NCBI GenBank assembly: GCA_965217775.1
Contig: CBDCJH010000002.1
Location: 4,480,001-4,544,000, forward strand
Origin: Acidobacteriota bacterium
Lineage (GTDB): Bacteria > Acidobacteriota > UBA6911 > RPQK01 > JAJDTT01
Direction of reading: 5' to 3'
Length of the DNA stretch: 64,000 nt
Part shown: positions 21,802 through 47,808 of the stretch, piece after piece
Position numbering within the stretch: position 1 is the first letter of the stretch
Layout of the letters: each line of letters opens with the position of its first letter
Notes under the pieces: generated by a model
Told to the model about the DNA's origin: nothing
The model's database searches: none
Seen by the model: only the letters and a program-made list of their open reading frames with translations
Position numbers and translations under genes: made by a program

Positions 21802-21837
21802 CCGCCCTGGTTACGGGGCCGAGATCCTCGCCAGCCC

Positions 21838-23049: not shown

Positions 23050-23054
23050 TTCCA

Positions 23055-26078: not shown

Positions 26079-26097
26079 ATCGATCTCCGCCTCTCTG

Positions 26098-26688
26098 CTA
26101 TTTCCTGGCCAGGTCCGCGATGAAGCACCCCACGGCCCGGGTCTCCGGTTCCGCGACCGTTTCCCCTTGGAGCACGGATTCCAGGGCCAGCTTCAGGTCG
26201 CGGCGATTGGGTTGGGCCCGCGCCTTTCCGAAATCGGGGTACCGGTCGTCGATGCGCCCACGGTAGACGAGCCGTCCGTCGGCGTCGAAGACGGCCGCTT
26301 CAGGAGTGACCCGGGCGCCCGTGAGGCGCACCAGGTCGTGATGGGAATCGCGAAGGATCTCGCCTGGAACTTGATATTCCTCCGCGTGCCGCCCGATGGC
26401 CTCGGCCTCTTCCTGCGGATCCACATAAACCAGCCAGAACCGCACCCCTCGGGGCGAGAACGTCTCATGCAGACGCCGCAGCTCGGGCGCATACCGGTTG
26501 GCGATGGGACAATCGCTGCGCATGAACAGGAAGACGCTGGCCGGGTCGCTGGCCGCGAGCGGGTCCACGCGCTCTCCCGAAAGGCTCGTCAGGTTAAACC
26601 CCGAGGGGCCCGAACCGCAGCCCCAAAAGATCAATAGGCTCAGAAGCCAGGCCGCCACGCTGGATCGACACCGTCGAAGAGCCTTCAC
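26098..26688 (-). CDS. Redoxin (AhpC/TSA-like) lipoprotein
   Basis: SDCPIANRY, ARVTPEA, YRGRIDD, AVGCFI. Confidence 0.85.
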   Translation of the reverse strand: MKALRRCRSSVAAWLLSLLIFWGCGSGPSGFNLTSLSGERVDPLAASDPASVFLFMRSDCPIANRYAPELRRLHETFSPRGVRFWLVYVDPQEEAEAIGRHAEEYQVPGEILRDSHHDLVRLTGARVTPEAAVFDADGRLVYRGRIDDRYPDFGKARAQPNRRDLKLALESVLQGETVAEPETRAVGCFIADLARK

Positions 26689-26754
26689 GCTTCAATTTTT
26701 ACATGATGCGCCAGCGTACGCGAGCGATCTCCTCATCTTGCTAGACTGGCAGAG

Positions 26755-28431: not shown

Positions 28432-28546
28432 CCGCCGAACTCCGTGTTGGGCATCGGGGCGTTGAAGAGTGGGGGACAAGAATGTCCCCCCTCCTGTTCC
28501 CCCTCCCGGCGTGGCGACTTTCACCGGGTACTGCTAACCTTTGGTC

Positions 28547-31029: not shown

Positions 31030-32523
31030 CTACTTGAACTGGAACGAGTAGAGCTTGGCGTTCTTGAAGTAGATCCTCAGCTTGATGGGTCTGTCCTTCA
31101 GACCACTGAGGTCGCTCTTTCCCTTCCACGACGCGACGTGGGCCAGACCGGTGGTGGTGATGGGATCCGCGTCCTTGAAACCGTAGCCCTCGATGGGGTG
31201 GTGGTCGGCTCCGATGATCTCCACGCGCACCTCGCAGGGGCCGGCACCCCACTGGCGAAGGGCCGACCGGACGTTCAGATGGAGGCGGTCTCCACTGAAG
31301 GTGAAGGAGCGGGTCACGACCTCGCTGAAGGGATAGCGTTGGCGCTCGTGCCCCTGCGCTCCGTCCAGGGAGACGAAGCCGTCCGGCGGCGTCACGGCCA
31401 GACCCACGGCCCCCAGGGCCTTGTTCCCCAAGTGGTACAGGCTCTCGGGGGAACGCCAGTTCACTCCGGTGTAGTAGTTGAGCAGACGCCCCTCGTGGAC
31501 CTTGGGGTCCTGGGCATAGACCACGGCCGAGTCGAAGCTGCCGTTGGGACCGGCCGGTATGAAGGGCTCCCGGTAGTCCCGATTGTAGTGGATGCCGTTA
31601 CGGCTGAAGACGGCCTGGGGCAGGATGCTGGTGTTGGTGGTCCGGAAGTTCCAGAGCATTCCCACGTACATCCCCTCATAGACAGTGACGGCCATGTGGT
31701 AGAACTGGAGGTCCGGGTAGTCCTGCTCGTCCGGGAGGATGATGGTCTCGGGCTGGCTCCAGTGAATCATGTCGGGGCTCTCGGCGCGGCCGATGAGCCG
31801 CTTGCCCAGGGGACAACGAAGATGAGCGCAGTTCTCCATGTGCACGGCGTAGGTCTGCCGGATGGGGTCCCAACCCATGAAGCCGGTGGGTCCCCAGCGC
31901 CCCACCCGGGGAGAGGTGTCGATGATGGGATTGTTCTCGTAGGCCGTCCACTGGAAGCCGTCGGGTGAGTAGTAGAGGTCGAATTGCATCCCCGGTGTCC
32001 CGGTGGTCCCCGTGCGCTCGAGCCCCTTGTAGCGCTTGGCCGGATCCTTCTCGTGCCGGTCCTTGAAGAAGTAGGGCCGGAACAGCTCCCGGGGGAGGAT
32101 GTTGTTCTCACGGGAGCCTTGGAATTCCACCTTTCCCAGGTTGGGCTTCTCCCAATGGAAACCGTCCTTGGAAATGGCGATGCAGAGCTTCCCGTCGCCT
32201 GATTCGACGATGAACTCTCCCTGGCCCTGACTGGCCTTGTAGGAATTCCCGCTGTACCACATCCGGAAGAGGCCCTCTTCCTCCTCGTAGATCACCTTGC
32301 TGACCCGGACGTCATTGCCCTCCCAGGGCTTCTCGGGACGAATGATGGGGTTGTGGTCGACTTTCCGGGCGGGATTCAGTACCTGGCGCGTGGCCAGCAT
32401 GCTCTCGATCAGATAGTCGTCGATGAAGAACTGCTTTTGGGACCCGATGTGGATCAGACCCGCCTGGACGTGGACGGCCAGGAGCCACCCGCAGACTGCC
32501 ATGGTGCCGATTTTCGTGTGCAT
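31030..32523 (-). CDS. Exported five-bladed propeller glycosidase-like protein
   Basis: KQFFIDD, SKDGFHWEKPNLG, DGFVSLD, AKLYSFQF. Paralogue of 5263..6930. Confidence 0.7.
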   Translation of the reverse strand: MHTKIGTMAVCGWLLAVHVQAGLIHIGSQKQFFIDDYLIESMLATRQVLNPARKVDHNPIIRPEKPWEGNDVRVSKVIYEEEEGLFRMWYSGNSYKASQGQGEFIVESGDGKLCIAISKDGFHWEKPNLGKVEFQGSRENNILPRELFRPYFFKDRHEKDPAKRYKGLERTGTTGTPGMQFDLYYSPDGFQWTAYENNPIIDTSPRVGRWGPTGFMGWDPIRQTYAVHMENCAHLRCPLGKRLIGRAESPDMIHWSQPETIILPDEQDYPDLQFYHMAVTVYEGMYVGMLWNFRTTNTSILPQAVFSRNGIHYNRDYREPFIPAGPNGSFDSAVVYAQDPKVHEGRLLNYYTGVNWRSPESLYHLGNKALGAVGLAVTPPDGFVSLDGAQGHERQRYPFSEVVTRSFTFSGDRLHLNVRSALRQWGAGPCEVRVEIIGADHHPIEGYGFKDADPITTTGLAHVASWKGKSDLSGLKDRPIKLRIYFKNAKLYSFQFK

Positions 32524-32529
32524 TTGATT

Positions 32530-34203
32530 TCAACCCCTTCCGCCCGGATAGTCCCAAGTCCCGGGAGTCCAGAACTTGGGGATGTGCTCCTCTTCCTTGG
32601 TAATGGTCTCGATCAGCGCCGGCCTCCCGCCACGGGTCACCTCCAGGGCCTTGCGGATGGCGGGAGCCAGCCCGTCGGGCGTGTCCACCCGCTCGGCATG
32701 GGCCCCCAGCCCGCGGGCGACCCGGGCATACTCGCCGCTGAAGGCGTTGCTGCCCCAGTGCTTGGTGGCATAGGGCATGTGACTGGAATAGTGGGTCATG
32801 ACGCCGTTGTTCAGGACGATATGGAGGGTCCCGATCCGGTTTCGGGCCGCGGTCTCCAGATCCATGCCCGCCATTCCGAAAGCGGCGTCTCCCATGATAT
32901 GGATCACGTCCTTCTCGGGAGCCGCCATCTTGGCCCCCAGTGCCAGGCCCAGGCCGTAGCCCAACTGGGTGGACTTGCCCCATCCGATATAGCCGCGCGG
33001 GGTGACCGCCGGCCAGAAGGGCACCAACTGGTCCCGGGGAAAGCCCGAATCGTGGGTGGCGATGACGTTGGCCGGGTCCACGGCCCGGATCACCTCGCGG
33101 AAGACGCGGTAAGGACTGATGGGAACCTCGTCCGACTCGAAGTGGGGGCGCCACTCGGCCACGAAATCCGCCCTGACCCGGGCGATCTCCGCCGCCACGC
33201 CCTGCTCGTCCGCCCGTCCGCCGGTGCCGATCTGGCGCTGGACCTCCTGGATGATCTGCCGCAGCACGACCTTGGCGTCGCCGATGGCGCCGTAGTCGAC
33301 ACGGTGATCCTTGTTCAGGTCCTCCGGACAGTTGGTGAGTTGGGCCAGGGGGACGCCCACCGGGACCGGTCCGTTGAAGACCGAGTGGGTGAAACTGGTG
33401 CCGGCGCCCAAGATGAAGTCGGTCTTCCGGAGGAAGTGGTCGACCATCCGCGTGCTAGTGTAGCCCGCCGTGCCCAGGGCCAGGGGATGGTTCTCGGGAA
33501 AGGCGCTCTTCCCGGCCAGGGAGGTGAGCACCGGAATCTGGATCAGCTCCGCCAACTCCACCAGCTCGGACGTGGCCTCGGCGTAGAGAGAGCCCTGCCC
33601 GGCGTTGATGACGGGGCAGTCGGCGGCCAACATGGCCCGGACCAGATCCCGGACCTCATCCGGGTCCGCCGCCGAGCGGTGCCTGCGAACGGGCGTGTAG
33701 TTCAGCTCGCCCGGATACTCGTCGGTTCCCACGTCGTCGGGGATCTCGAGAAGGACGGGACCGGGACGTCCATGTTTGACGAGAGTGAACGCATAGCGCA
33801 ACATCTCGGGAATCCGCTCCACCATGTTGCAGTTCCGGGTGTACTTGGTGATTCCGTGGTACTGATCGCAAGAGGCGAAGTCGGGATGGACCTGCATCCG
33901 CCTCCTGGGAGCCCCTCCCGGGAAGAGGAGAATGGGCACCGAGTCGGCGAAGGCCTGCGCCACCCCGCCATAGGCGTTCTCGGCGCCGGGGCCCCTCTGC
34001 ATGGTGAACACGCCGATCTGGTTCCCGTTGCGGACGCGGCTGAAACCGTCGGCCATGTTGACGCCGGCTCGTTCCTGCCGGCTGATGATGGGACGGATGC
34101 CCTCCTTGGCCACGGCGTCGATGAGCTTCTGTTCCGGGAAGGCGGCGATCCATTCCACCCCTTCCAACTTCAGAATCTTCGCGATCACGGAATTACCGTT
34201 CAT
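32530..34203 (-). CDS. Thiamine pyrophosphate-dependent enzyme (acetolactate synthase-like superfamily)
   Basis: RQERAGVNMADG, GRPGPVLLEIP, TPP motif GDAAFGM...LNN. Confidence 0.9.
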   Translation of the reverse strand: MNGNSVIAKILKLEGVEWIAAFPEQKLIDAVAKEGIRPIISRQERAGVNMADGFSRVRNGNQIGVFTMQRGPGAENAYGGVAQAFADSVPILLFPGGAPRRRMQVHPDFASCDQYHGITKYTRNCNMVERIPEMLRYAFTLVKHGRPGPVLLEIPDDVGTDEYPGELNYTPVRRHRSAADPDEVRDLVRAMLAADCPVINAGQGSLYAEATSELVELAELIQIPVLTSLAGKSAFPENHPLALGTAGYTSTRMVDHFLRKTDFILGAGTSFTHSVFNGPVPVGVPLAQLTNCPEDLNKDHRVDYGAIGDAKVVLRQIIQEVQRQIGTGGRADEQGVAAEIARVRADFVAEWRPHFESDEVPISPYRVFREVIRAVDPANVIATHDSGFPRDQLVPFWPAVTPRGYIGWGKSTQLGYGLGLALGAKMAAPEKDVIHIMGDAAFGMAGMDLETAARNRIGTLHIVLNNGVMTHYSSHMPYATKHWGSNAFSGEYARVARGLGAHAERVDTPDGLAPAIRKALEVTRGGRPALIETITKEEEHIPKFWTPGTWDYPGGRG

Positions 34204-35068
34204 TGACTGTCTCCTCCTCTTCTTGAAACGCCTGTCGTAGAAGCCATTGTGCGGCCCGACTGTAACCGCCCTCCGGGACCCGGTGGCCATCCGATGGTTC
34301 GACATGGAGTTGGACCCGGGTTCCGGTCTTCCGGGACACCGCCTCCCGGCTCACGGCCAGGGCCAGTTCCATTGCCTGCCGGGTGCCGACCCGCTCATCC
34401 TGGTGACCGATGATGATCCAGAGATTCCGGGACGCCAGCTTTTCGGCCTTCGTTACCAGGGCGAGAGAGCGGGTCAGCGAATCGTCTTCCAGATCCTGGA
34501 ACTCGCGCAAGACGGCGAGATCGGTGACGGGGGCGAAAGCGGCGACCGCACGGACCCGAGAATCCGCTGCCCCCAGGTGCAGGGCGGCGAATCCCCCGCG
34601 GGAGGTGCCCGATGCCAGGATCCGCCGTGGATCCGACAACCCTTCTTCGATGAGGGCATCCAGGACCTCGCGCGCCCGGCTCACGAAGCCGGCCATGAGA
34701 TCCTCTCCCTGCCGAACACGGTCACTCCAACCCTTCAGTCCCTGCGGCTCCCCGGCCCGGACCTCTTGTCCATGATCGGGCAGGTCCAGGGAGACACAGC
34801 GGAACCCGTGCTCCATGAGCCGGGAGCAACAACTGCTGTAGATGGGATGGGTCAGGCTGTCTTCCAAGGTACCGGCAAAAACGAAGAGTGTCGGGGAAGG
34901 ACCATCGGGACCGCCTCCCAGGTGGCCGTATCGGACGCCTCCGCCGGTGTGGGCCAGGATGGGTGCTGCGGGGGTTGTGGACGGCTGTCGATCCAACGAC
35001 CTCTGGAAGCCGAGCGTGGGAGTCGCGAAAGAAATCGACGCCATCAGGAGTGCGGCCCCAACCCACAT
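34193..35068 (-). CDS. Alpha/beta hydrolase (esterase-like)
   Basis: LDLPDHG, nucleophile elbow GTSRGG, DERVG, GHRV. Start position uncertain. Confidence 0.75.
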   Translation of the reverse strand: MWVGAALLMASISFATPTLGFQRSLDRQPSTTPAAPILAHTGGGVRYGHLGGGPDGPSPTLFVFAGTLEDSLTHPIYSSCCSRLMEHGFRCVSLDLPDHGQEVRAGEPQGLKGWSDRVRQGEDLMAGFVSRAREVLDALIEEGLSDPRRILASGTSRGGFAALHLGAADSRVRAVAAFAPVTDLAVLREFQDLEDDSLTRSLALVTKAEKLASRNLWIIIGHQDERVGTRQAMELALAVSREAVSRKTGTRVQLHVEPSDGHRVPEGGYSRAAQWLLRQAFQEEEETVNER

Positions 35069-35485
35069 GAAGTGTCCCCAGTGGCCAAGGATGGACGCTT
35101 CGGGATGAAAACGCGCCACTACGGCGCCGCACCCATCGGGCACATTATCCGGGCGTCCGGTGAGGCGGTCAACCGCTGGGCCGGAGGACTTGAGCTGTTC
35201 CTCAAAGGATTGTGGGACTGGCGAGCGGGACAAGTCGGAGCGAGGCCGGGGTCAAAGGAGTCCGATTCCGGGGAACGGACGGATCAGAGCAGCCAGATCC
35301 AACGGAGCGGAACTATCGAGCCATCCACATTCTCAAGATTCGGGGGCTGCAAGCCCCCGCTCCCAGATGAGGGCTCGATGTAGCTCACAGTCCATCACTG
35401 GCACCCAACCAATCCTGGTTGGACCCGCCCACGACCGGTGATGCACGTTTGTCGGCGTTCTCCGAGACAGCAGGGACGCACCGGA

Positions 35486-35779
35486 TCAATCGGCCTTGAT
35501 TCCCATGTTCGTGAAAGTGCAATGGATCATGGAGCCGATGTTCCCGGTAGGATCGTCGATCAGAATGACTTTGTACGAACGCTCATCCCAGGCGCAATAC
35601 ATGGATGCCGGGAGGCCGTCCAATCGATTCCAGGACCGAAAAAATCCGATGGTCACCTTCCAGACACTCTTTTCGTTGTCGAATACCACCTCTTCGACAC
35701 CCACGTGACTGATATCTTCCCCGGCAAAGAACTCGGCAACGCAGTTCCGTGCCTTTTCCACCGCTTCTCTGACGTCCAT
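35486..35779 (-). CDS. Small hypothetical protein (97 aa)
   Basis: MDVREAVEKARNCVAEFF...LEEV-like GVEEV, WKVTIGF, RSYKVI; GAGG upstream of the start. Confidence 0.6.
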   Translation of the reverse strand: MDVREAVEKARNCVAEFFAGEDISHVGVEEVVFDNEKSVWKVTIGFFRSWNRLDGLPASMYCAWDERSYKVILIDDPTGNIGSMIHCTFTNMGIKAD

Positions 35780-35828
35780 CCGAACCTCCTCTACCATGAC
35801 GCTCACGATATCCGCTCCTGCTCCGTTA

Positions 35829-35988
35829 ACAGTCCGTGGTGAAAGTCGCGCGAGCACCGAGACCGTTCCTGCGCCCGCCGGACAAGGCGCGATTCGGGTG
35901 CATACCGGGAGTATGTGCCCGAATCGCAACGCCGTCCGCCGGGATGCAGGGACGGTCGAATGCCGTGACGACTTTTGCCACGGGCTGT
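35829..35988 (+). mobile_element. 160-bp MITE, copy 1
   Basis: Imperfect TIRs CAGTCCGTGGTGAAAGTC / GACTTTTGCCACGGGCTG, TA on both flanks, internal hairpin. Near-identical inverted copy at 41056-41215. Confidence 0.85.
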
Positions 35989-36092
35989 TAAGACCTGCCT
36001 TTACTTCAACGCCGCCGGCTCAAAAACTACTAGCGTGAAATCTTCACCTGTGGCCCATCTCCGAGGCGGCGTAGTAGACTGGTTGCCGGGAA

Positions 36093-38585
36093 ATGCGGTC
36101 AGTAGGCGCCCTGAATTCCATCTATCCCCCGGAGCGGGTCCTTTCGGGTCCGGCCCAGTTGGCCCCCTATGAATCGGATGCGCTGACGGCGTTTCGGGAA
36201 CGGCCACTGGCGGTGGTCCTGGCCGAGTCCCAGGAGGAGGTGATCGAGACGGTACGCCTCTGCCACCGGGAGAACCTGCCCTTCGTGGCGCGAGGGAGCG
36301 GCACCAGCCTCTCGGGGGGATCGCTCCCGATCCGGGAGGGCATCATCATCGGGCTCAACCGCCTCAACCGGGTCCTGGAGTTGGATCCGGCCGAGCGGTG
36401 CGCCGTGGTGGAGCCGGGAGTCATCAACCTGGACCTGAGCGCGGTGGGAGCTCCACACGGACTCTATTACGCCCCCGATCCCTCGAGCCAATCCATCTGC
36501 ACCATCGGCGGGAACGTGGCCTTCAACTCCGGCGGAGCCCACTGCCTGCGCCACGGCATGACCAGCAACCATGTCCTGGGCCTGAAGGCGGTGCTGCCTG
36601 ACGGCGCCGTGGTGGAGCTGGGGAGCAAGAGCATGGAAGGGGTGGGACCGGACCTCACCGGGTTCTTCGTGGGTTCGGAGGGGCTCTTCGGCATCGCTCT
36701 GGAGATCACGGTTCGTCTCATCCCGAAGCCCGAGTCGTACAAGACGATCCTGGCCGCCTACAACAGTCTGGAGGCCGCCGGGGACGCCGTGGCTCGGGTG
36801 GTGGCCACGGGACTCCTCCCGGGCGCCATGGAGATCATGGACCATCTGGCCATCGAGGCAGCCGAAGCCGCAGTCCACGCCGGCTATCCCCAGACAGCCA
36901 CGGCTCTTCTCATCGTGGAGTTGGAAGGGGAGACGGCCGAGGTGGAGGCCGAGTTCCAGCTCCTGGAACCGGTGATTCAGGCTTCGGGGGCCTTCGAGAT
37001 CCGTGTCGCCCGAGATGAGGCGGAACGACTCCGGATCTGGAAGGGACGCAAGAGCGCGTTCTCGGCGGTAGGACGGCTCAGCCCCGACTACATCGTCCAG
37101 GACGGGGTGGTTCCCCGGAAGCAACTGGGGTCGACCCTGGCCGAAATCGAGATGCTGGCGCGGAAGCATGGGATCCGGGTGGCCAATGTCTTTCACGCCG
37201 GAGACGGAAATCTCCATCCCCTGATCCTGTTCGACGGCACCGAGGCGGGCGCCCTGGAGAAGGCCGAGGAACTGGCCGGCGAAATCCTGCAGATGTGCAT
37301 CCGCAGGGGGGGCTCCATCACCGGAGAGCACGGCGTGGGCATGGAGAAGCGCGAGTACCTGGCCCACATGTTCGCACCCACCGACATGGAGGTCATGAGG
37401 AGACTGCGGCGATCCATCGACCCGCTGGAGATCGCCAATCGGCGCAAGATGTTCCCCGACGGGCACGGGCGCGTCCCGGCCCCTGAGATCATCCCTTCGG
37501 ACAACGGGGCGCGGACGGCCCTGAGACCCGAATCGTTTCGGCAGGTGCAGCAGGCCGTCGCGGATCACGCGCGTATCCGGCCGCGCGGCGGCGGTACCAA
37601 GCCGGCTCTTTCCCAGCCGCCCGAGGGGATTGTCTCCCTGGACCTGAGAGGTTTGTCCGGCATCGTGGAGTACGAGCCGGAAGAGTACACCTTCACGGCT
37701 CTGGCGGGCACACCGGTAGCCGAAGTCCAGGAGAGATTGGCTCAGGAGGGACAGTATCTGCCCTTCGATCCGGTGTTGGTGCGAGCCGGAGCCACTCTCG
37801 GCGGGACGGTGGCGGCGGGGACCGGCGGCTCGGGACGTTACCGCTACGGCGGCATCCGTGACTTCCTCCTGGGGATCCGGTTCGTCAGCGGCCGCGCCGA
37901 GCTGGTGCGAGGCGGCAGCCGGGTGGTCAAGAACGCCGCCGGGTTCGATCTTCCCAAGCTCATGGTCGGCAGCCTGGGAAGGTTGGGAGTCCTGGTGGAA
38001 ATGACGTTCAAGGTCTTCCCCCTTGCCCAGCGCTGGCTGACCCTGGAAGTGGAACTGCCCGACCTCTCGCAGGCTCTGGAGGCCATACGTCGCCTGCGGG
38101 CTGCTCCCCTGGACTTGGCCGCCGTGGATCTGGAGCCTCCGGGGCGACTGCTGATACGGGTTGGAGGTCGGAGCGAGTCGGTCTCCGTTCGTCTGGACCG
38201 GGTTCGAGAGCTGGTGGGGCAGGGGGTGGAACTACAGGGGCAGGAGGAGCAGGACCATTGGGATGAGGTCCGGGAATTCGACTGGGTCCCGGCCGATTGG
38301 AGCCTGATGAAGGTCCCCATGACCACGAGCCGAATCGCCGATTTGGAAGAGAGTCTGACCTCTGTCCCGTGCCGGTCGCGCTACTGCGCCGACGGTAGCT
38401 TGGCGTGGCTGTCCTGGTCCGGACCGTTGGACCCCTTGGACTCGGCGTTGGCCCATCTGGGTCTCACCGGCCTCGTTCTACGGGGAAACGGAGACATCGC
38501 CCGCCCGGGCCGTAGGCAAGACCGGGTCTTCTCCGAAAGGATCCGGAACGCACTGGATCCGGACGGGCGATTTTCGGAGGAATAG
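36093..38585 (+). CDS. glcD: Fused glycolate oxidase GlcD-GlcE (two FAD-binding PCMH domains)
   Basis: GlcD motifs [35 protein letters not shown], continuing in frame into GlcE motifs [34 protein letters not shown]. Confidence 0.85.
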
Positions 38586-39848
38586 GTGCAACACGGCATC
38601 GACGCAGAACGATACGGGCCTCAGGGCGAAGCCATGGCCCACCAGGTGAAGACGTGTGTGCACTGCGGCTTCTGTCTGCCGGTCTGTCCCACTTACAAGG
38701 ACCTGGGCCAGGAGATGGACTCACCCCGCGGACGCATCCTGCTGATGAAGGAGATGCTGGAGGGGAACCTCGAAATGGAGGAAGGTCTCCCCTACGTGGA
38801 CAAGTGCCTGGGCTGCATGGCGTGTGTCACCGCCTGCCCTTCGGGGGTCGAGTACGGCGAGTTGCTGACGCCGTTTCGAGCGCTGGCCCGGGACCGGGTC
38901 AAGGGGACTCTGCTGGATCGCCTGACCCGCCTCAGCTTTCGACTGCTCCTGCCCTTTCCTCGCCGGTTCCGAGCCGCCGCATATCTGGGCCGTCTGGCTC
39001 GCCCGTTCACCGGGATGCTCCCGGAGCGGATGGCCTCCATGCTGGAGCTGCTGCCCCGGAGGCTGCCGGCTTCTCCTCCGCTTCCGTCTGTCTACCCGGC
39101 CCAAGGGAGGCGCCGGGCTCGCGTCGCCCTATTGTCGGGTTGCGTGCAACAGGTGCTGTCGCCGTCCATCAACTGGGCCACGTTAAGGGTTCTGGCTCGT
39201 AACGGCGTGGAGGTGATCGTCCCCGCCGAACAGGGGTGTTGCGGCGCCCTGGCGCTGCACAACGGCGACGCCGAGCAAGCCCGGCGGTTGGCGGCCCACA
39301 ATTTCGAAGCCTTGCCTGACGACGTGGACGCCATCATCACCAACGCCGCCGGTTGCGGGTCCGGGATCAAGGAGTACCCGCTGCTGTTCCGGAGCCATGG
39401 CCTGGAAGAGGAGGCACGCCGCTTTTCGGCTCGCGTCCGGGACGTGAGCGTATTCTTGGACGAGCTCGGCTTGGAACGGGATCCTCCGCCCCTGCCTGCG
39501 GCAATGAAGGTCGCCTACCACGACGCCTGCCACCTGGCCCACGCCCAAGGCATCCGATCGGCGCCCCGGAAACTCCTGAAAAGGATTCCGAATCTGACCC
39601 TGATGGAGCTTATGGACGGCGAAACCTGCTGCGGCTCCGCGGGGACTTACAATCTGGAACAACCGGAGATCGCAAACCGCTTGGGGGCAAACAAGACAGA
39701 CGTTATCGAGCGATTGCAGCCGGATGCGGTGGCCGCCGGGAACGTCGGTTGCCTGATGCAGATCGAGAGCCACCTCAAGCGGCGGAACAGTCCACTACCT
39801 GTACTCCATACGGTCGAGTTGCTGGATCGAGCTTACGAATCGGCGTGA
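38586..39848 (+). CDS. glcF: Glycolate oxidase iron-sulfur subunit
   Basis: [34 protein letters not shown], two CCG domains. Confidence 0.9.
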
Positions 39849-39914
39849 CTCAACGGCCGCATCGGATCCTTTTGCGGCCAGTGCGGATAGTTTTCGGAGG
39901 CAAAAGAAGAAATG

Positions 39915-40301
39915 TCACGCTACGGTGCCGCGTCCGGTCCCAACGAAGAACTCCCGCAGCACGTCCAGGGTCCCCTCGATCCGGCCCATTCGGTCCCGCA
40001 GGTCGCTGGTCTGCAACTCCATTCGATCGCGCAGGTCGCTGGTCTGTGACTCCATTCGGTCCCGCAGGTCGCTGGTCTGCGACTCCATTCGGTCCCGCAG
40101 GTCGCTGGTCTGCGACTTCATTTGGTCCCGCAGGTCGCTGGTCTGCGACTTCAAGCCGTCGATTCTCCCGGCCAAGCGAGACTCCATCCGATCAATCCGG
40201 GAACCGATCTCCACGCGCTGATTGCGAATCGTTCGGGCCGTGAAAAGGAACCCCAAGATGACTATGGCGGGCGTGATCCACTGGGCTAGTTCAGTCGGCA
40301 T
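39915..40301 (-). CDS. Small TM + coiled-coil protein with 11-aa tandem repeats
   Basis: N-terminal TM (WITPAIVILGFLF), 5x (QTSDLRDRMES), ending MGRIEG. Confidence 0.75.
   Translation of the reverse strand: MPTELAQWITPAIVILGFLFTARTIRNQRVEIGSRIDRMESRLAGRIDGLKSQTSDLRDQMKSQTSDLRDRMESQTSDLRDRMESQTSDLRDRMELQTSDLRDRMGRIEGTLDVLREFFVGTGRGTVA
39988..40152. repeat. 33-bp in-frame tandem repeat (5 units)
   Basis: Unit ATTCGGTCCCGCAGGTCGCTGGTCTGCGACTCC with few substitutions. Confidence 0.9.
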
Positions 40302-40591
40302 CGGTTTCTCGTGAGAAGGGAACAGTCACCGTATTCCGCGCCGGGAACTTGTCCGGCACGCTGCGGCGAAAACTTCCTTACTCTCCGTCCCTCTTTGACT
40401 ATAACGCTTCAACCACGGAATCTGCGATGATGCCGGCCAAAAAAAGGAGCCAACCCGGAGGATGGACCTTTTGGAACGCTAGATCTCGCTTGGATCGCCA
40501 GAACAACGAATAGGGGGCAGTCACTTTCTTCCGCCGTCTCGCTCCAAACGAGTCCGGATTACGGAGGGGACAAGGGAGTTGAGCTAACTGG

Positions 40592-40798
40592 TTACACCCT
40601 CGCTTTGGGTTGGTGCACGAAAGCGAAATCCCGGATGTTGGCACGCTCCACAGCATGTTCAATAGTCATCGCGACCAAGTTTTCATTCTCGTCCAGATCC
40701 AAGTAGATGTTCTCAGACACCTCTCGCGTCTCGACGATCAGCTCCGAAGTAAACTCGATGAGAGCAGTGTCGGTATCTTCAAAGTAATTGATCTTCAT
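40592..40798 (-). CDS. DUF2283-family small protein
   Basis: MKINYFEDTDTALIEF...IYLDLDENENLVAMTIEHA matches the DUF2283 pattern; GAGG RBS. Confidence 0.75.
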   Translation of the reverse strand: MKINYFEDTDTALIEFTSELIVETREVSENIYLDLDENENLVAMTIEHAVERANIRDFAFVHQPKARV

Positions 40799-40932
40799 TT
40801 CCTCGGATTGTACTCCACCGAGATCGCACTCGTTCTCCTTGCCATTCCTGCCCGTTGTCAATGGCCATCGAAAAAAATGTCAGGGTACGGCCGCTGTCAT
40901 CGAATCGAATCGGCCACCGTCACTTTCTTCCG

Positions 40933-41230
40933 CGCGTCCAGGACGTGAGCGTGTTTTTCGGCGAGCTCGATCTGGATCAGGATCCTGAACCCCTCGCGGC
41001 GGTGGACCAGTCCGCTATCTGTACTCCATACAGTCGTGTTGCTGGATCGAGCTTACCAGCCCGTGGCAAAAGTCATCACGGCATTCGACCGTCCCTGCAT
41101 CCCGGCGGACGGCGTTGCGATTCGGGCACATACTCCCGGTATGTACCCGAATCGCGCCTTGTCCGGCGGGCGCAGGAACGGTCTCGGTGCTCGCGGGACT
41201 TTCACCACGGACTGCTACGAATCGGCGTGA
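40933..41230 (+). pseudogene. Decayed, internally deleted duplicate of the glcF 3' end, interrupted by a MITE
   Basis: 40933-41000 aligns with 39432-39500; 41001-41055 with 39781-39835; 41216-41230 with the glcF stop region. Confidence 0.8.
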
Positions 41231-41596
41231 CTCAACGCCCGCATCGGATCCTTTTGCGGCCAGAGTGAGTGGTTTTCGGAGGCAAAAGAAGAAATGTGAC
41301 GTTACGGAGCCGCGTCCAGTCCCGACGAAGAACTCCTGCAGCACGTCGAGGGTCCCCTCGATCCGGCCCATGCGGTCCCGCAGGTCGCTGGTCTGCGACT
41401 CTAAGCCGTGGATTCTCGCGGCCAAGCGAGACTCCACGCCTTCAATTCTCCCGGTCAGGCGAGACTCCATCCGGTCCATCCGGGACCCGAATCGGGATTC
41501 CATCTCCACGCGCTGGTTGCGAATCGTGCGGGCCGTGAAAAGGAACCCCAAGATCACAATTGCGGGCGTGATCCACTGGGCTAGTTCACTCGGCAT
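41015..41596 (-). CDS. Paralogue of 39915..40301 that has lost its stop codon (reads through into the MITE; possibly a pseudogene)
   Basis: MPSELAQWITPAIVILGFLF...MGRIEG; the TGA of copy 1 is TCA here (~41297-41299). Confidence 0.6.
   Translation of the reverse strand: MPSELAQWITPAIVILGFLFTARTIRNQRVEMESRFGSRMDRMESRLTGRIEGVESRLAARIHGLESQTSDLRDRMGRIEGTLDVLQEFFVGTGRGSVTSHFFFCLRKPLTLAAKGSDAGVESRRFVAVRGESPASTETVPAPAGQGAIRVHTGSMCPNRNAVRRDAGTVECRDDFCHGLVSSIQQHDCMEYR
41056..41215 (-). mobile_element. 160-bp MITE, copy 2
   Basis: Reverse complement of 35829-35988. The empty site GAGCTTACGAATC at ~39829-39841 becomes GAGCT-TA-[element]-TA-CGAATC. Confidence 0.9.
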
Positions 41597-41852
41597 CGGT
41601 TCCTCGTGAGAAGGGAACAGTCATTGTATTTCGCGCCGGGAACTTGTCCGGAGTCCAACGTTGAAAATCTCCTTACTCCCTGTCCCTCATTAGACTATAA
41701 CGCTTCAACCACGGAATCTGCGCTGATGCCGGCCAAAACAACGCCGATCCGGAGGTTGGACTTTCTTGAACGTCGAACGAATAGGGGACAGTCCCTTTCT
41801 TCCTCTTGGTATCATCCAATGGCGCTAACCCAACACGCAGAGGAGTACCGTC

Positions 41853-43076
41853 ATGACAAGCTACGTCCTTCTGAAAGATGCCAATGCGGGACGGCGGCGA
41901 AGCTGGTTCGAAGGTTCGCAGAGCGTGGGCGGAGTGCCGTCTTACGGCGGGATGTCGACGATGTCCGGGGACATGCCGCCCGAACCGGAAGTGAGCGTGG
42001 AAAACCTGGAGCCACAAGACCTGCGGGAAGCGACACGTGACCCAGGGATTCTGGATTTGGCGCGGACCATGCCGACACGTTTGATTGCACCGATGGCCTC
42101 GGACACAGCGGCAACGAAAGGGCCGACTTGGGGGATTCAGGCCGTAGGGGCTGACAAGAGCCCCGCCGATGGCCGGGACGTTCTGGTCTGCGTTCTGGAC
42201 ACCGGCATTGACGCCGATCATCAGGCCTTTACGGGGGTGGATCTGGTGCAGCGGGATTTCACTGGAACGGGTAATGGCGATGTGCAGGGGCACGGCACCC
42301 ATTGTGCGGGCACGATGTTCGGACGGGACGTGGACGGCACGCGAATCGGCGTGGCGCCGGGAGTGAGCCGAGCACTGATCGGCAAGGTATTGGGCAATAA
42401 GGGCAATGGCGAATCGGACAGGCTGTTCAACGCAATATTGTGGGCTTCGTCGTTGAATGCAAAGGTTCTCTCGATGTCACTCGGCTTCGATTTCCCCGGT
42501 CTGAGCAAGAAGCTGGCCGATAGGGGATACCCGGTGGATCTGGCGACCTCCATCGCGCTGGAGGGATATAGGGCCAATCTGCGGGTATTTGACAACCTGA
42601 TGGACTTGATTGCCAGTAAGGCAGCATTCAATGGCGGAATGGTCATCGTTGCGGCCTCGGGAAACGAGAGCAAGCGCCAGAAGAATCCGAAGTATGAGGT
42701 CAGCGCTTCGGTACCGGCAGCAGCCAAGGGAATCGTATCGGTGGGAGCACTCGGGGAAGCCGGCGACGGCTTGAACGTGGCGGATTTTTCCAACACCAAC
42801 CCGCTGCTGAGCGCCCCCGGGGTCAATGTGGTGTCGGCGAAAGCCGGAGGCGGACTGGTAGCGTTCCAAGGGACTTCCATGGCCTGTCCCCATGCGGCCG
42901 GTGTCGCGGCTCTGTGGTGGCAGAGAGTGAAGGAGGAAGCCAGCATACCGGCAACCGCGAGCGCGGTGGTGACCCGCATGCGCGCCACCTGCCGGACCGA
43001 TGTATTCCGTGCCGGTGTCGACATGCTGGACCGCGGCGACGGGCTGATCCAGGCGCCTGTTGCATCGGGTGCCTGA
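41853..43076 (+). CDS. S8 subtilisin-family serine peptidase
   Basis: Catalytic LDTG, HGTHCAG, oxyanion AASGNES, GTSMACPHAAG; GAGGAG RBS; no clear signal peptide. Confidence 0.92.
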   Translation: MTSYVLLKDANAGRRRSWFEGSQSVGGVPSYGGMSTMSGDMPPEPEVSVENLEPQDLREATRDPGILDLARTMPTRLIAPMASDTAATKGPTWGIQAVGADKSPADGRDVLVCVLDTGIDADHQAFTGVDLVQRDFTGTGNGDVQGHGTHCAGTMFGRDVDGTRIGVAPGVSRALIGKVLGNKGNGESDRLFNAILWASSLNAKVLSMSLGFDFPGLSKKLADRGYPVDLATSIALEGYRANLRVFDNLMDLIASKAAFNGGMVIVAASGNESKRQKNPKYEVSASVPAAAKGIVSVGALGEAGDGLNVADFSNTNPLLSAPGVNVVSAKAGGGLVAFQGTSMACPHAAGVAALWWQRVKEEASIPATASAVVTRMRATCRTDVFRAGVDMLDRGDGLIQAPVASGA

Positions 43077-43165
43077 GCGTACGCCCGTCTAAACCCTGCT
43101 CCCGAGACGCGTAATAGTTCACGGAACAGAGAAGGGAACAGGCACCCTCTTCCCCGCTCCTCCCA

Positions 43166-43300
43166 TGTTTGAAGCCGTCGAAGAAGTCCGCTAGAACGTC
43201 GACGGTCTTGTCTTTTCCGAAGGCGAAATTCTTGTGCAACGAGAGATCCACAAGGGGAATACCGTCGTAGCGCAGCCGATCGGGGACGCCGTTGACCAAG
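43166..43300 (-). pseudogene. Decayed fragment of the TonB-dependent receptor C-terminus
   Basis: Translates NGVPDRLRYDGIPLVDLSLHKNFAFGKDKTVDVLADFFDGFKH, versus NGAPYPLRYDGVPVVDLSLHKNFAMGEDKTFDVRADFFNAFNH at 44270-44404. Confidence 0.85.
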
Positions 43301-43407
43301 AAACCGAGAAGGGGAGAGTCACCTTTTTCCGCGTCGCGCAGCCTCACAAGACTGGAGAGGACGCCGTTTCCCCGATCTGCGAGCTCCGCGCATGCGGTTG
43401 ATCGAAG

Positions 43408-43671
43408 TCAACAAGGGGGTCCTGGGCTGACTCCAATCCGAATCCCCAGACTCCCCTTGATATGGCCCATATCGATCTCCACGTTACGGAGCCTCTCATC
43501 AATTTTTTGAATTCTGTGGTCAATGCTATTGAGATACCATCCGCCCGCACCCAGCAAAAGAAGAAGTAAAACCCGGAAAATCCAGTTCACATTCAATCCC
43601 CCATTGGTTTCCCGGTGAGAAGAAAAATCCATCTTCTCTAAGTCCGGATCCTTCGGGAGTTTAGCTTTCAT
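43408..43671 (-). CDS. Small TM + coiled-coil protein (87 aa)
   Basis: TM WIFRVLLLLLLGAGGWYL, then IDERLRNVEIDMGHIKG; AT-richer than its surroundings. Confidence 0.6.
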   Translation of the reverse strand: MKAKLPKDPDLEKMDFSSHRETNGGLNVNWIFRVLLLLLLGAGGWYLNSIDHRIQKIDERLRNVEIDMGHIKGSLGIRIGVSPGPPC

Positions 43672-43681
43672 CGTTGTCCCC

Positions 43682-43879
43682 CTACTCTCCGTTCCGCAAT
43701 ATTGGAGGAGCCTTGGTGAATCCCTCGAAGAGCCCCTCCAATCGGGCCATCCGCTCGCGCAGGTCTGCGATGTCCTTACGAATATCCGAAATCTCACGCC
43801 GCATGGACCATTGACCGGGAACGAGGGCGCCAGCGGGCGCGATTGTGGCCACGATGATTCCGATGAGATCCGAACTCAT
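43682..43879 (-). CDS. Small TM + coiled-coil protein (65 aa)
   Basis: Hydrophobic N-terminus, then ISDIRKDIADLRERMARLEG; AAGGA RBS. Confidence 0.65.
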   Translation of the reverse strand: MSSDLIGIIVATIAPAGALVPGQWSMRREISDIRKDIADLRERMARLEGLFEGFTKAPPILRNGE

Positions 43880-44101
43880 GAATCCTTCCGACTACGGTTT
43901 GCCCTCGGCGGGTCAAAGTATCGAAACCCTACCACGACCGTGTCTGCCGGGAATACGGGCTGGTGCCGGTCTCCCGGCAAGCCCCGGCAGGTTCCTTCAG
44001 AGCCATGTGACCCGCTCCGAGTATGGCCACCGTCCCCTCAATTGATTCGGTCCCTCTATGACTGTAACGCTTCAGTCACGGAATCTGCGTGGACACCGGA
44101 C

Positions 44102-44134
44102 AAAAAAAAGGGCCAGCCCGAGGGCTGGCCCTTT
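44102..44134 (-). terminator. Rho-independent terminator of TonB receptor 1
   Basis: AAAAAAAAGGGCCAGCCC-GA-GGGCTGGCCCTTTT. Confidence 0.85.
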
Positions 44135-44160
44135 TGGAACGCTCGATTGCGCTTGGATCG

Positions 44161-47100
44161 CTAGAACGAGAAGCGGAATCCAATCTGAATCTGCCGCGCC
44201 GTCGCCGCCGAGGTTACCCGGCCAACGCCACCACTGGCATGGTTGCCGTTGGGTGCGTTGAAGATGGCGTGGTTGAAGGCGTTGAAGAAGTCCGCCCGGA
44301 CGTCGAAGGTCTTGTCTTCTCCCATGGCGAAATTCTTGTGCAGTGAGAGGTCCACGACGGGAACTCCGTCGTACCGCAGCGGATAGGGGGCTCCGTTACC
44401 CAGGGACCGCCTTGCCGCCTCGTGGCAGAAGTTGGCACCGCCGCAAAGCGACGTGTCCATGATCCGCTGGCCAGGCACACTCGGGTTCTCGATGCCGGGG
44501 GCCGTGAAGGCGCTCGTGTCATACCACCGCTCCACCGTGGCTCCGCCGCCCAAGGCCCCGTCCTTGATCCGGTCGGTGTACCGGCGCGAACGTCCGCCCT
44601 GGTTCCACAGATCGGTGCTGTAGTAGACGCGGAAGGGGGCTCCCGTAGTGAGAGTGGTGATGCTGGTGAGCTCCCAACCGCCCAGCAGGGACTTGGTGAC
44701 CCCGCCGGCGTTCCGGAAGAAAGGCAGCTCCCAGATGGCGGACATGTAGTAGGTGCTGGAGCGGTCGTGCTGCATGGGCGCCCGCAGGGCGTGGCGCTCG
44801 TAGTCACGCGACCCGGACCAGTCTCCCCAGTTGCCGTTGTAGTTCATGGCCATGGCCTTGGACCAGGTGTAACCCATGGAAAGGGCGATACCGTCGCTGA
44901 AGCGGCGCTCCAACTTGGTCTGCAGGGAGTTGTAGTTCATGCTCCCGTGCGGCCGCAGCATGGTGTTGGGAATGACCTGGGGATAAGGCCGCCGGGCCAA
45001 CTGCCCATTCCATTCACGCCCGACCTCGCCACGAGTCTCGGCCGGAATCCACTCGCGAGGCCCGGCCGTGATGGGGTCGCTGGTCAAGGTCGCGGTGCCG
45101 CCACCGATGAGAGGCACCACATACCCTTCCGGCATGGCGACGTTGAAGGGGCTGATCTCGCGGATGTGACGCCCCTGGTTGCCAACATAACCGATTTCCC
45201 ACTTGGTCCCCTGGAACAGCTCGTGCTGAATCATGAGGTTGTAGGAAAAGACTTGGCCTTCCTGCCAATCCAATTCGGAGAAGTAGCAGGTGCGGTAGTT
45301 GCTGTTGACCCGAATGCCATCCGCGTTGATCGCACCCGTATCCCGGGGCAGGTTGAGCCGTATGCCGCTGATGAGGGAGGGGACTGCCTCTCCTCGTACG
45401 GCCGGCAGGTTGATGACGCCGACGTTGGGCCGCATGACCCGGGCGCGGAGAATTCCGAACTCCTGGTCATAGGTCAGGCCCGCACCGGCGCGGAGCACCG
45501 TCCGGTTGGTCCCGAACATGCGCCAGGCCAGACCGAGCCGAGGCGCGAAGTAGCGCCACTTGGCCTTGTAACAACCGCGGTGAGGCAGGTTGGCGAAGGG
45601 AACGGCGATTCCGACGGCTCCCTGCCACTGGGCGATGTCGAAATCCTTCGGCATCATCTCTACCGGATCGATCCGGTTGGTGGCCTGGGTGTAGTCGTAG
45701 CTACAGTAGTAGTAGTCCCTGGTATAGGACCCGTTCGGGTGCCCCTCGTAGAAGGGCGGCCGCGGCTGCTCCCAGCGAAGACCCATGTTCAGGGTCAGGT
45801 TCGGACCCACCTTCCAGTCGTCGTTGATGAACCAGTTGTAATGGCTTTGGTTGAAGTGGCCCGTGTTCTCGCCGATGCCCAGCACGTTGCCGAAGACCGA
45901 GGAGGGCGTTCCCAGCATGAAATCGGCCCAGCCCTCGCCCTCGCTGACGCCCGCGAAGCTTCCGTCCGGGTTGTACTGGAGCTGGCCCGTCGAAAAGCCG
46001 TTGAAGCTGTCGCCACCGGCCGCATAGGGCGGAATCCAGTAGTAGTGGACATCCAGGTTCCGAACGTGCTCGATGCCGAACTTCAGGTAGTGGTCTCCCT
46101 TTCTCCAGGAGGCCGTGTACTTGAAGCCCAGGCCCCAGTCCGCAAGCGGCGATTCGGTGGCGCCGCCCCAACCGGTGTAGCCGGAGGGGCTCAGGCGGGG
46201 CATGTTGGCGCCGCCGCGGTTGCCGTTGGGCAGATAAACTTCCCAGTTCTGGCCGTCGTCGAATCCCAGAACCCGAGGCCAGTTGGTGTCCTCGATGGGC
46301 CGTGAGATGAGCCAGGTGAACTTCCAGATGGACTGGGTGTACTCGGTCACCAGGTTGGATCCGATGGGGTTCACCCAACTGATGCCGATCTGGTAGCCGC
46401 GGGACCGGTCCTGGAACTGGCGGTAGATGCCGTCCTGGTTGGCGCCGGGGACCCCCCACCTCCCGGTATGGGTAAAGGCGGGCGACCGCTGCCAACTGTA
46501 ACGTCCGAAGATGTTGTCGTCGTTGGAGAACTGGTGGTCGACGCGGAACGAGTACTTGTCGATCTTGGTGTTGGTGGCCCGGGGATAGGCGTAGTTGCTG
46601 GTGAGCTCACCCGCCTGATTGGGTGCCGGCGGGGGCATCAACTCCATCACCTTCTTGTAGACCGCACCCTGCATGCTGGCCGGGATCTGGTTGTTGGGGA
46701 AAGCAGCCCGCATTCCCGTTGCGTCCTCTTGGCTTCCGCTGAAGTCGAACGGATTGTAGAGCTGATTGATGGGCCCCTTGGCGCCCGATCCCGAAAAGTC
46801 GCCCTGAGTGATGGCCGTGGAAGGCGCGGTAGCGAAGCCGGCCGTCTGCAGGTTGTCGATGAACTTCTCGTAATGGCCGTGGAAGAAGGTCTTGTCCTTG
46901 AGGACGGGACCACCGATGGAGCCGCCGCCGATGTGGTAGTCCACCGGCAGTTTCTTCAGCCCCGACCGGTTCTGGAAGAAGTTGGCCGCATCCAGAGTCT
47001 CATCCCGGAAGTAGTACCAGGCATGGCCGTGGAACTCGTTGCTCCCGCTCTTGGAGAGCATGGTGATGACTGCCCCGCCCACGCGGCCGTACTCGGCCGA

Positions 47101-47808
47101 GTAGTTGTTGGTGATCACCTTGAACTCCTGCACCGTCTCCGGAGTCGGCTGCACCGTGGGCCGCTGCGTGATGTAGCCCATGTTGTTGGAACCGTCCAAC
47201 TGGATCTGGTTGGAGTGGGAATAGAGGCCGTTGAAGGTGGGGTAGCCGCCGCCGTAGGCGTAGAGGGCCGTGTAGCCGACCTCCTGCCGCTCCTGCGTTC
47301 CGCCCGTGGTCAGGTAGGCCAGCTTCACCATGTCGCGGCCCGCCAGAGGAAGATCCAGGATCTTCTTCTCTTCGATGACCGCCGCCACCTCGGCATTGTC
47401 GGTGTCGATGATGGTGGACTGTCCGGTGACCGTCACCTGCTCGGAGATGTCGCCGGGGGACATGGTGAGATCGATGCGGGATACCGTCTGAACCTCCAGA
47501 CGGACCCCCAGGGAGCGGGCCGTCTTGAAGCCGGGCAACTCCGCCGAAATGTCATAGAAACCGGGGATCAACTTGTCGATGACGTAGTCACCGCGGTCGT
47601 TGGTCACCGCCATGTGCGGCACGTTGGTCGCCGTGGCCGTGGCCGTGACTTCCACCCCGGGCACCACCGCTCCGGTCTGGTCCTTGACGGTACCCAGCAA
47701 CCGGGAAAAGGTGGCAGCTTGCCCGTAGGCCAGCGGCGCCGCCAGCGCATGAACGACGAGCACCAGGGCCGCCGTCGCCAACCATAGAGACTTGTTCTTG
47801 TAGCTCAT
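44161..47808 (-). CDS. TonB-dependent receptor (Oar-like, carboxypeptidase regulatory-like N-terminus), paralogue 1
   Basis: GTVKDQTGAVVPG, VQEFKVITNNYSAEYGR, FAPRLGLAW, C-terminal ARQIQIGFRFSF. Confidence 0.93.
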   Translation of the reverse strand: MSYKNKSLWLATAALVLVVHALAAPLAYGQAATFSRLLGTVKDQTGAVVPGVEVTATATATNVPHMAVTNDRGDYVIDKLIPGFYDISAELPGFKTARSLGVRLEVQTVSRIDLTMSPGDISEQVTVTGQSTIIDTDNAEVAAVIEEKKILDLPLAGRDMVKLAYLTTGGTQERQEVGYTALYAYGGGYPTFNGLYSHSNQIQLDGSNNMGYITQRPTVQPTPETVQEFKVITNNYSAEYGRVGGAVITMLSKSGSNEFHGHAWYYFRDETLDAANFFQNRSGLKKLPVDYHIGGGSIGGPVLKDKTFFHGHYEKFIDNLQTAGFATAPSTAITQGDFSGSGAKGPINQLYNPFDFSGSQEDATGMRAAFPNNQIPASMQGAVYKKVMELMPPPAPNQAGELTSNYAYPRATNTKIDKYSFRVDHQFSNDDNIFGRYSWQRSPAFTHTGRWGVPGANQDGIYRQFQDRSRGYQIGISWVNPIGSNLVTEYTQSIWKFTWLISRPIEDTNWPRVLGFDDGQNWEVYLPNGNRGGANMPRLSPSGYTGWGGATESPLADWGLGFKYTASWRKGDHYLKFGIEHVRNLDVHYYWIPPYAAGGDSFNGFSTGQLQYNPDGSFAGVSEGEGWADFMLGTPSSVFGNVLGIGENTGHFNQSHYNWFINDDWKVGPNLTLNMGLRWEQPRPPFYEGHPNGSYTRDYYYCSYDYTQATNRIDPVEMMPKDFDIAQWQGAVGIAVPFANLPHRGCYKAKWRYFAPRLGLAWRMFGTNRTVLRAGAGLTYDQEFGILRARVMRPNVGVINLPAVRGEAVPSLISGIRLNLPRDTGAINADGIRVNSNYRTCYFSELDWQEGQVFSYNLMIQHELFQGTKWEIGYVGNQGRHIREISPFNVAMPEGYVVPLIGGGTATLTSDPITAGPREWIPAETRGEVGREWNGQLARRPYPQVIPNTMLRPHGSMNYNSLQTKLERRFSDGIALSMGYTWSKAMAMNYNGNWGDWSGSRDYERHALRAPMQHDRSSTYYMSAIWELPFFRNAGGVTKSLLGGWELTSITTLTTGAPFRVYYSTDLWNQGGRSRRYTDRIKDGALGGGATVERWYDTSAFTAPGIENPSVPGQRIMDTSLCGGANFCHEAARRSLGNGAPYPLRYDGVPVVDLSLHKNFAMGEDKTFDVRADFFNAFNHAIFNAPNGNHASGGVGRVTSAATARQIQIGFRFSF

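Follow-up and report, generated by a model that had tools for sequence, protein, structure and literature searches.

Seven similar 25-mers, here called S1 to S7, lie in one orientation between a glcF-like gene and a TonB-dependent-type receptor gene of an uncultured Acidobacteriota bacterium (6.43 Mb, two contigs), with genes and gene fragments between them, and raise the question of whether such a row is a gene-capture system or part of a dispersed repeat family. The window, i.e., the whole stretch of DNA analyzed, was 64,000 nt long (GCA_965217775.1, contig CBDCJH010000002.1, positions 4,480,001–4,544,000 of the forward strand), and its own numbering is used below unless another locus is named. 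The original prediction, made from the letters of the window, described the array as an integron-like gene-capture platform. Our analysis indicates that the 25-mers are probably repetitive extragenic palindrome (REP)-like dispersed repeats of a TIRYT-type Y1 element, and that recombination between copies reshuffles the segments between them.

The repeat in the window and in the genome

The seven sites were all on the plus strand and aligned as 25-mers without gaps, at the following positions (scores from a weight matrix built from the genome-wide copies):

40313–40337, plus: S1, 30.7 bits; 11 nt upstream of a minus-strand gene start
40508–40532, plus: S2, 32.9 bits; a 1271-bp difference from sister species G002 and G003 has its left breakpoint here
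40907–40931, plus: S3, 14.3 bits; degenerate, with a poor left half and a good right half that runs into the glcF remnant
41608–41632, plus: S4, 29.4 bits; duplicate of S1
41779–41803, plus: S5; an equivalent site stands upstream of the protease gene in 7/7 relatives (1 weak)
43129–43153, plus: S6, 27.9 bits
43306–43330, plus: S7, 35.2 bits

The previously proposed core, with up to two mismatches allowed, matched the window 7 times where 0.62 matches were expected, a count that 0/100 shuffles reached. These matches comprised S1, S2 and S4–S7 (6) and an unrelated one at 47961, S3 not being caught. Weight-matrix scores of at least 10 bits were found at S1–S7 and nowhere else in the window, with 28–35 bits for the sites other than the weak S3. 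The seven co-oriented 25-mers of the original prediction, with their coordinates, were thereby borne out, as was the lack of attC-like boxes in these 25-bp sites; a weak eighth site, suggested at about 44020–44044, scored below 10 bits and was not supported. An Rfam scan of 38000–46000 found nothing at the sites, and gave a single sub-threshold suhB match at the receptor terminator.

The motif had not been noticed elsewhere in the window, which holds, but it is far from confined to this locus. Scanning the genome yielded 135 matches of at least 20 bits, or 127 once the second-strand readings of palindromic copies (two matches within 5 bp) were removed. The consensus, GAGAAGGGGACAGTCAC[CG]TTCTC, was a 23-bp near-palindrome with 11-1-11 symmetry about one base, and conservation ended at about 24 bp. 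The exact core GGGGACAGTC occurred 148 times, whereas 40 permuted 10-mers occurred 27.6 times on average and 87 times at most. By rough gene calls based on open reading frames (ORFs), 104 of the 127 copies were intergenic, with a non-coding share of the genome of ∼16%, and the 23 “genic” copies were mostly near ORF ends. The copies were clustered, with 74 gaps of ≤3 kb against about 7 expected, and neighbors that close were co-oriented in 63 cases and opposed in 11 (50 vs. 11 when the window and tandem stutters were left out). Eleven clusters of at least four sites were present in the genome, the window array being one of them, so that the notion of a special local platform gives way to that of one cluster in a dispersed family. 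The clusters lay in variable, accessory regions, as the platform idea had led one to look for. Right halves differed from cluster to cluster, and half-sites were often repeated in tandem in a fixed register around GTC.

A near-palindromic 23-bp consensus in intergenic DNA would also suit sites that are uninvolved in recombination and are bound by a regulator of accessory genes, as operators or otherwise, and the dense arrays that genome G023, of another family, carries in divergent promoter regions fit that description. This explanation is nevertheless very improbable, as the sites stood at varying positions and in either orientation with respect to gene starts (upstream, 44 same and 60 opposite; downstream, 45 same and 59 opposite), half-sites stuttered in tandem, the repeat stood inverted on either side of a transposase gene in 11/11 copies, and breakpoints between species fell on the sites (both described below).

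The Y1/HUH transposase gene and its flanking repeats

No match to Y1 transposases, tyrosine recombinases or serine recombinases was found inside the window, DDE transposases not having been looked for; for those three families, the earlier remark that the window lacks an integrase or transposase is correct. Elsewhere in the genome, a gene for a 311-residue Y1/HUH transposase was present in 11 full-length copies and 1 fragment, all 11 of them more than 500 kb from the window. The full-length copies were 83–100% identical to the query copy, and one had an in-frame TAG. Each of the 11 had a forward site 126–300 bp upstream and an inverted site 160–320 bp downstream, with the same core GGGGACAGTC, and DNA homology among the gene copies (87–92%) stopped near these flanking sites. 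Nine copies had GGGGACAG as their upstream core, and the other 2 had GGGACAG preceded by an A. Downstream, the core was mostly AGGGACAG, which lacks one base of the TIRYT motif GGGGWSAS discussed below, and the part common to array and gene-flanking sites was RARAAGGGGACAGTC. The 25-mer repeats belong with the Y1 gene. The suggestion that they are recognition-type sites for a HUH/Y1 RAYT-like enzyme acting in trans is supported by these flanked gene copies.

The protein (P0002) reached 37.3 bits for Pfam PF01797 (Y1_Tnp), whose cut-off is 23, and the copy in G023 reached 36.6 bits. H63, H65, Y162 and N166 were invariant across 24 homologues, the protein itself reads NHFH and YVELNA, and some homologues carry the JGI name “REP element-mobilizing transposase RayT”. 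Two other Y1_Tnp genes of the genome (C2:5635244 and C2:4665597) had no core-like sequence within about 1.5 kb on either side.

Repeat and enzyme were also found together across related genomes. Among 41 of them, the window genome included, a 15-letter pattern of the repeat was abundant (16–87 matches) in 10, namely the window genome, 8 genus mates and G023, and had 0–5 matches in the remaining 31, with 0–1 for the reversed control pattern. A homologue of at least 73% identity was encoded in precisely those 10 genomes, in agreement with the expectation of co-occurrence with one HUH family, while the 31 pattern-poor genomes (30 without the unpublished genome G016) had homologues of ≤58% identity or none. 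The relatives had 3–11 matches to the enzyme gene each. In the species collection, all close homologues were from metagenome-assembled genomes labelled Acidobacteriota, save one labelled Aminicenantes. Taken together, the flanking of the Y1 gene by the repeat and the co-occurrence of repeat and enzyme argue for a REP-like family with its transposase in trans, rather than for an integron.

In G023, the protein was 78–79% identical to the enzyme of the window genome, its 311-residue Y1_Tnp gene was flanked by sites, and 56 pattern matches were found, mostly within 70 kb and in dense arrays. The region G023:C1:1415001–1495000 (L001–L004) contained non-coding arrays with up to 12–18 co-oriented sites in 1.5–2.2 kb, spaced by 15–231 bp in partly periodic units, that were intergenic and mostly between divergent large genes. 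Their right halves, ATCATTTAGGC, were unlike those of the genus of the window genome.

A short semi-palindromic site that delimits modules also resembles dif-like modules, and a tyrosine or serine site-specific recombinase (of integron, Xer/dif-module or island type) might be proposed in place of the Y1 enzyme. The C-terminal fragment of a tyrosine recombinase does lie inside the site cluster at 2.11 Mb (L023:5080–5274, or G000:C2:2115579–2115773, minus strand). Yet it was the only one of 26 Phage_integrase matches inside a cluster, two further integrase fragments lay 4–5 kb from another cluster, and no match was found within 300 kb of the window, so that fragments alone were seen, in or near 2 of the 11 clusters. 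The sole resolvase of the genome was far from all clusters. Unlike Xer/dif modules, whose 28-bp sites have 11-6-11 symmetry and alternate in orientation, the sites here were symmetric as 11-1-11 and neighbors were mostly co-oriented, and the attC-like boxes of integrons were absent. A recombinase of this kind is therefore scarcely credible as the agent.

Rearrangement at the sites among sister species

The interval between the two bordering genes contained the following features in addition to the sites:

38586–39848, plus: glcF-like Fe-S subunit gene, left border (Pfam CCG and Fer4; orthologue in 7/8 genus mates)
39915–40301, minus: small transmembrane/coiled-coil gene, copy A (from the ORF list; coiled-coil-like Pfam matches sub-threshold only)
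40384–40504, no strand: copy of the receptor-downstream region, 83% identical to 44047–44167, adjoining the left side of S2
40592–40861, minus: DUF2283 gene (Pfam PF10049, E 3e-14)
40933–41056, no strand: glcF remnant, pieces matching 39432–39501 and 39779–39836 (BLAST)
41057–41215, no strand: 159-bp palindromic MITE (a miniature transposable element with inverted repeats) within the glcF remnant, TAC target duplication
41015–41596, minus: second coiled-coil gene copy, A', with a frame that extends through the MITE
41682–41775, no strand: second copy of the receptor-downstream region, adjoining the left side of S5
41853–43076, plus: subtilase (Peptidase_S8) gene (Pfam E 2e-37)
43166–43305, no strand: receptor fragment between S6 and S7, with ∼82% identity to receptor genes in their 3' coding part
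43344–43879, minus: overlapping small ORFs with hydrophobic stretches, no Pfam family
44047–44160, no strand: original receptor-downstream region, with a terminator-like inverted repeat at 44106–44135
44161–47808, minus: TonB-dependent-type receptor gene, right border (Pfam OMP_b-brl_4 and CarboxypepD_reg)

Pfam and BLAST confirmed the contents that had been read from the sequence (DUF2283, glcF remnant, S8 protease and receptor-derived pieces). BLAST also found 39779–40532 duplicated at 40999–41803 with 82–92% identity, in accordance with the view that S4 and S5 are duplicates of S1 and S2. The glcF remnant begins inside S3, and the A' frame reads on through the MITE because the stop codon of copy A is altered in A'. 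Local partial duplication is a better description of the intervals that had been taken for captured flanking DNA. For the receptor fragment between S6 and S7, no closer source was found in the window genome, and an extra copy was present in 0/7 relatives.

S2 and S5 are placed precisely where the copies of the receptor gene end break off, and the 3' end of the receptor gene itself (44161–44190; ...FRFSF stop) reads GAGAAGCGGAA on the plus strand, which resembles the left half of a site. The coiled-coil paralogues contained 33-bp tandem repeats (11-residue units) at 39986–40153 and 41369–41479, with a copy number that varies between the two local paralogues and among species.

The interval was compared in seven genus mates, the eighth having no glcF match and being left out. 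Among these sister species it differs by segments that end at sites, and the order of the segments is permuted. In G007, the closest relative, the first coiled-coil/DUF2283/remnant block (1382 bp) was missing, and a single site replaced S6, the receptor fragment and S7, bearing the left flank of S6 and the right flank of S7. In G002 and G003, one site replaced S2 through S5 (1271 bp), with an exact left junction and a right side that resumed within ∼40 bp. Among the seven loci, the DUF2283 gene was found in G006, by itself between two sites, and in G001, elsewhere in the interval, where the order was protease, glcF piece, site, DUF2283 and coiled-coil gene; in G004, it was protease, glcF piece and coiled-coil gene. 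The comparison with close relatives that had been proposed as a check was therefore positive, breakpoints falling at sites across the seven species.

Other parts of the interval were stable. The protease gene was present in 7/7 relatives, in copies 85–92% identical, with a site equivalent to S5 upstream of it in all seven (weak in G005). The sites are consequently older than these species, and the protease, which had been presented as a captured cargo behind a site, has long been part of the interval and was not captured recently. Public contigs from four metagenome runs contained joints with 20–39 letters on the shorter side, which may come from sister species. One such joint, of 40497 to 41785, was seen in one short contig of run X4; being a single contig that equals the single-site form of G002 and G003, it was not counted as evidence of ongoing excision, and no circle or excision junction was seen in the contigs of the four runs.

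In the other clusters, the intervals held one or two genes, ordinary enzymes among them, along with MazF, AbiEii/AbiEi, PIN/Phd, TumE with an HTH protein, a ThsB-like TIR protein and a DruA-Tn5-like fusion. Four clusters with many toxin-antitoxin and defence genes (L023, L025, L026, and L027) were compared against five sister genomes, and blocks of homology often began or ended within a few bp of a site (L025 at 4752, 4786, 5236, and 10685; L023 at 5310, 6109/6116, and 7465–7493; L026 at 1433, 3015, 3748, 3793, and 7531/7534; L027 at 1216, 9660, and 10226). In total, 16 of 44 block ends fell within 12 bp of a site, a zone covering 2.8% of the sequence; the 44 ends were picked by eye rather than automatically, using high-identity blocks only and merging ends within about 100 bp. 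With these hand-picked ends, the coincidence had p-values from 2e-4 to 1e-6 under a null in which ends fall only in intergenic DNA, taken as 20–30% of these regions. In the same comparisons, G007 had one site in place of three modules that span 4.8 kb between two sites in the window genome, and G003 had that locus without any site. Two modules stood in reversed order in G007 relative to the window genome. Copies of a nearby flank, or of the 3' end of a gene, adjoining a site were recurrent in these clusters as well.

The DruA-Tn5-like fusion is an ORF of 783 residues (L024:2646–4997, or G000:C1:124145–126496, minus strand) with DruA-like (Druantia) and Tn5-type transposase domains, located between two sites on a 144-kb contig beside MazF, AbiE and PIN/Phd pairs. 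Another short repeat, at L026:1–302 (G000:C2:5167500–5167801), had at least 10 copies at 93–96% identity in G002.

Mechanism and relation to known systems

The species comparison shows the outcome directly, i.e., gain, loss, copying and re-ordering of segments at the sites. In the mechanism that we propose, the Y1 enzyme, encoded elsewhere, would act in trans on the sites; judging from the known chemistry of its family, it most likely binds them, nicks one strand there and has seeded the repeats through intergenic DNA. Where co-oriented copies lie close together, as between glcF and the receptor gene, recombination between them deletes, duplicates, inserts and re-orders the segments that they enclose. 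As to the step that moves a segment, we lean slightly toward single-strand cuts and joins made by the enzyme, rather than recombination by the host.

Several results weigh against this account. The same products would be expected if the host recombined 25-bp direct repeats, or if slippage occurred between them. Array sites had mostly a GTCAC right half and gene-flanking sites GTCT[GA]TTTT or GTCT[CT]GA, leaving only ∼15 nt in common. The window sites folded no better as single strands than shuffled sequences (z from −0.8 to +1.35 in 8/8), nor did 2 gene-flanking sites (0/10 in total), and one test of covariation in the palindrome was not significant (p 0.36), so that the hairpin expected of a Y1 substrate was not evident. 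On the side of the protein, the score for NCBIfam NF047646 (REP_Tyr_transpos) was 50.7 bits, under the cut-off of 80, searches of the PDB by sequence and profile returned nothing meaningful, and an alignment of 24 sequences gave an AlphaFold model of unusable quality (mean pLDDT 50.9). The co-occurrence of repeat and enzyme represents two independent lineages, not ten. Finally, the coincidence of block ends with sites is inflated by the restriction of both to intergenic DNA, and the choice of boundaries by eye weakens the breakpoint count.

The name TIRYT/TIRtron was given to elements in which a RAYT-like gene has inverted repeats, not REPs, on its flanks; many TIRYT repeats have GGGGWSAS in common, some form moderately abundant dispersed families as single copies, dimers or clusters, and one sharply defined protein group is from Acidobacteria (Di Nocera, De Gregorio, and Rocco, 2013, BMC Genomics 14:522; PMC3733652). 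The system analyzed here agrees in having a RAYT-like Y1 gene between inverted repeats at similar distances, a core, GGGGACAG, that fits GGGGWSAS, repeats that are also dispersed and clustered, and the link to an Acidobacteria-specific protein group. It departs from the elements as described there by its 11 gene copies per genome with 83–100% identity and ∼130 repeats, by co-oriented clusters with kb-scale spacing that bound gene modules, and by differences between species that break at the repeats. Quentin et al. (2018; PMC6006769) placed TIRYTs in subclass 2.1 (NH[YF]H, YIELNP) and described a subclass 2.3 whose members are long and multi-copy; REP-like sequences were found for neither. With its 311 residues and its motifs, the enzyme appears nearest to these two subclasses; compared with the signatures of 2.1, NHFH agrees and YVELNA differs by I to V and P to A.

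The system resembles the REP/RAYT elements of Proteobacteria (REPtron, REPIN) in that a Y1/HUH gene lies between inverted copies of an abundant extragenic repeat with which it co-occurs. It differs in that its sites have no 5' GT[AG]G head (no GTAG or GTGG) and no stable hairpin, and are mostly co-oriented singlets instead of inverted doublets. RAYTs are usually single-copy (Bertels et al., 2017; PMC5581495) and vertically inherited, whereas this enzyme gene is multi-copy (11 full-length and 1 fragment) and has a copy in another family as well (G023). With IS200/IS605 elements of the IS608 type, it shares a Y1 HUH enzyme and, presumably, single-strand cutting and joining at short sequences. 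In contrast to them, it has a Y---N (YVELN) rather than a Y---Q motif, its ends are inverted repeats without stable hairpins where those elements have subterminal hairpins that differ between left and right, tnpB, often part of such elements, is lacking as far as seen, no search aimed at it having been made, and site orientation is independent of the replichore; an orientation following the replichore, as in IS608, was rejected by eye, as cluster orientations alternate along the contig.

Closest to the original prediction is a dedicated cassette system, in which the Y1 enzyme would excise the segment from one site to the next as a single-stranded circle with one site and re-insert it at another, the arrays being integron-like stores. 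Such a system would explain the co-orientation within clusters (63 vs. 11 for neighbors ≤3 kb apart), the intervals of one or two genes, complete toxin-antitoxin pairs and defence genes included, the site-to-site boundaries of segments found in another order or location in other species, and the cluster-specific right halves with half-sites repeated in fixed register around GTC. It would also suit the finding that TnpA-REP of Escherichia coli cuts and recombines, or joins, single-stranded REP DNA in vitro (PMC8266576). We consider it unlikely, as the protease and several sites were fixed in place in 7/7 species, many “cargoes” were decaying copies of adjoining genes, gene orientation relative to the sites was mixed, and neither a circle or excision junction in the metagenome contigs nor a common promoter or entry site was seen. 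Many decaying copies of neighboring DNA indicate duplication as much as import.

Integron arrays proper are similar in having co-oriented recombination-type sites between units of one or two genes, many of them toxin-antitoxin or of unknown function, and a content that varies among relatives. They are dissimilar in that IntI, attI and Pc are lacking here, the 25-bp sites are not built like attC, genes lie in either orientation, neighboring DNA was the template of many units, and the arrays are many and scattered. None of the signs of dedicated capture (integrase, common promoter, attI-like entry site) was found for the array, and the claim of an integron-like platform is not upheld in that form. 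What survives of it is partly real: cassette-like turnover at the sites takes place, yet a dedicated capture system is not demonstrated.

The part, useful or harmful, that enzymes and repeats of the RAYT/TIRYT type play in their hosts has yet to be settled, and TIRYT/TIRtron repeats were seldom treated in the literature searched. The family described here is unusually active-looking (11 gene copies, about 130 repeats), and in several accessory regions its repeats mark the breakpoints at which modules have been gained, lost, duplicated or permuted among sister species. It offers a concrete, testable system, whether for a Y1/HUH enzyme that moves host genes or for short dispersed repeats that alone suffice for cassette-like arrays. 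It is conceivable, albeit doubtful, that co-oriented TIRYT repeats make the genes between them exchangeable modules, which the Y1/HUH enzyme would cut out, release as a single-stranded circle and paste at another site. If true, this would be a second, integrase-free route to cassette arrays stocking toxin-antitoxin and defence genes in Acidobacteriota, and would give RAYT-like “domesticated” transposases a concrete function.

The 159-bp palindromic MITE in the glcF remnant was found a second time in the window, at 35830–35987, and its insertions had 3-bp target duplications (TAC, TAG, TAA or similar). It was rejected as part of the site system on account of these duplications and of its not being near Y1 genes. 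Full-length copies numbered 212 in the genome, including 47 with ≥99% identity, and in the four metagenome runs the contig depth at the MITE was 18,000–36,000, compared to roughly 5–400 for neighboring bins.

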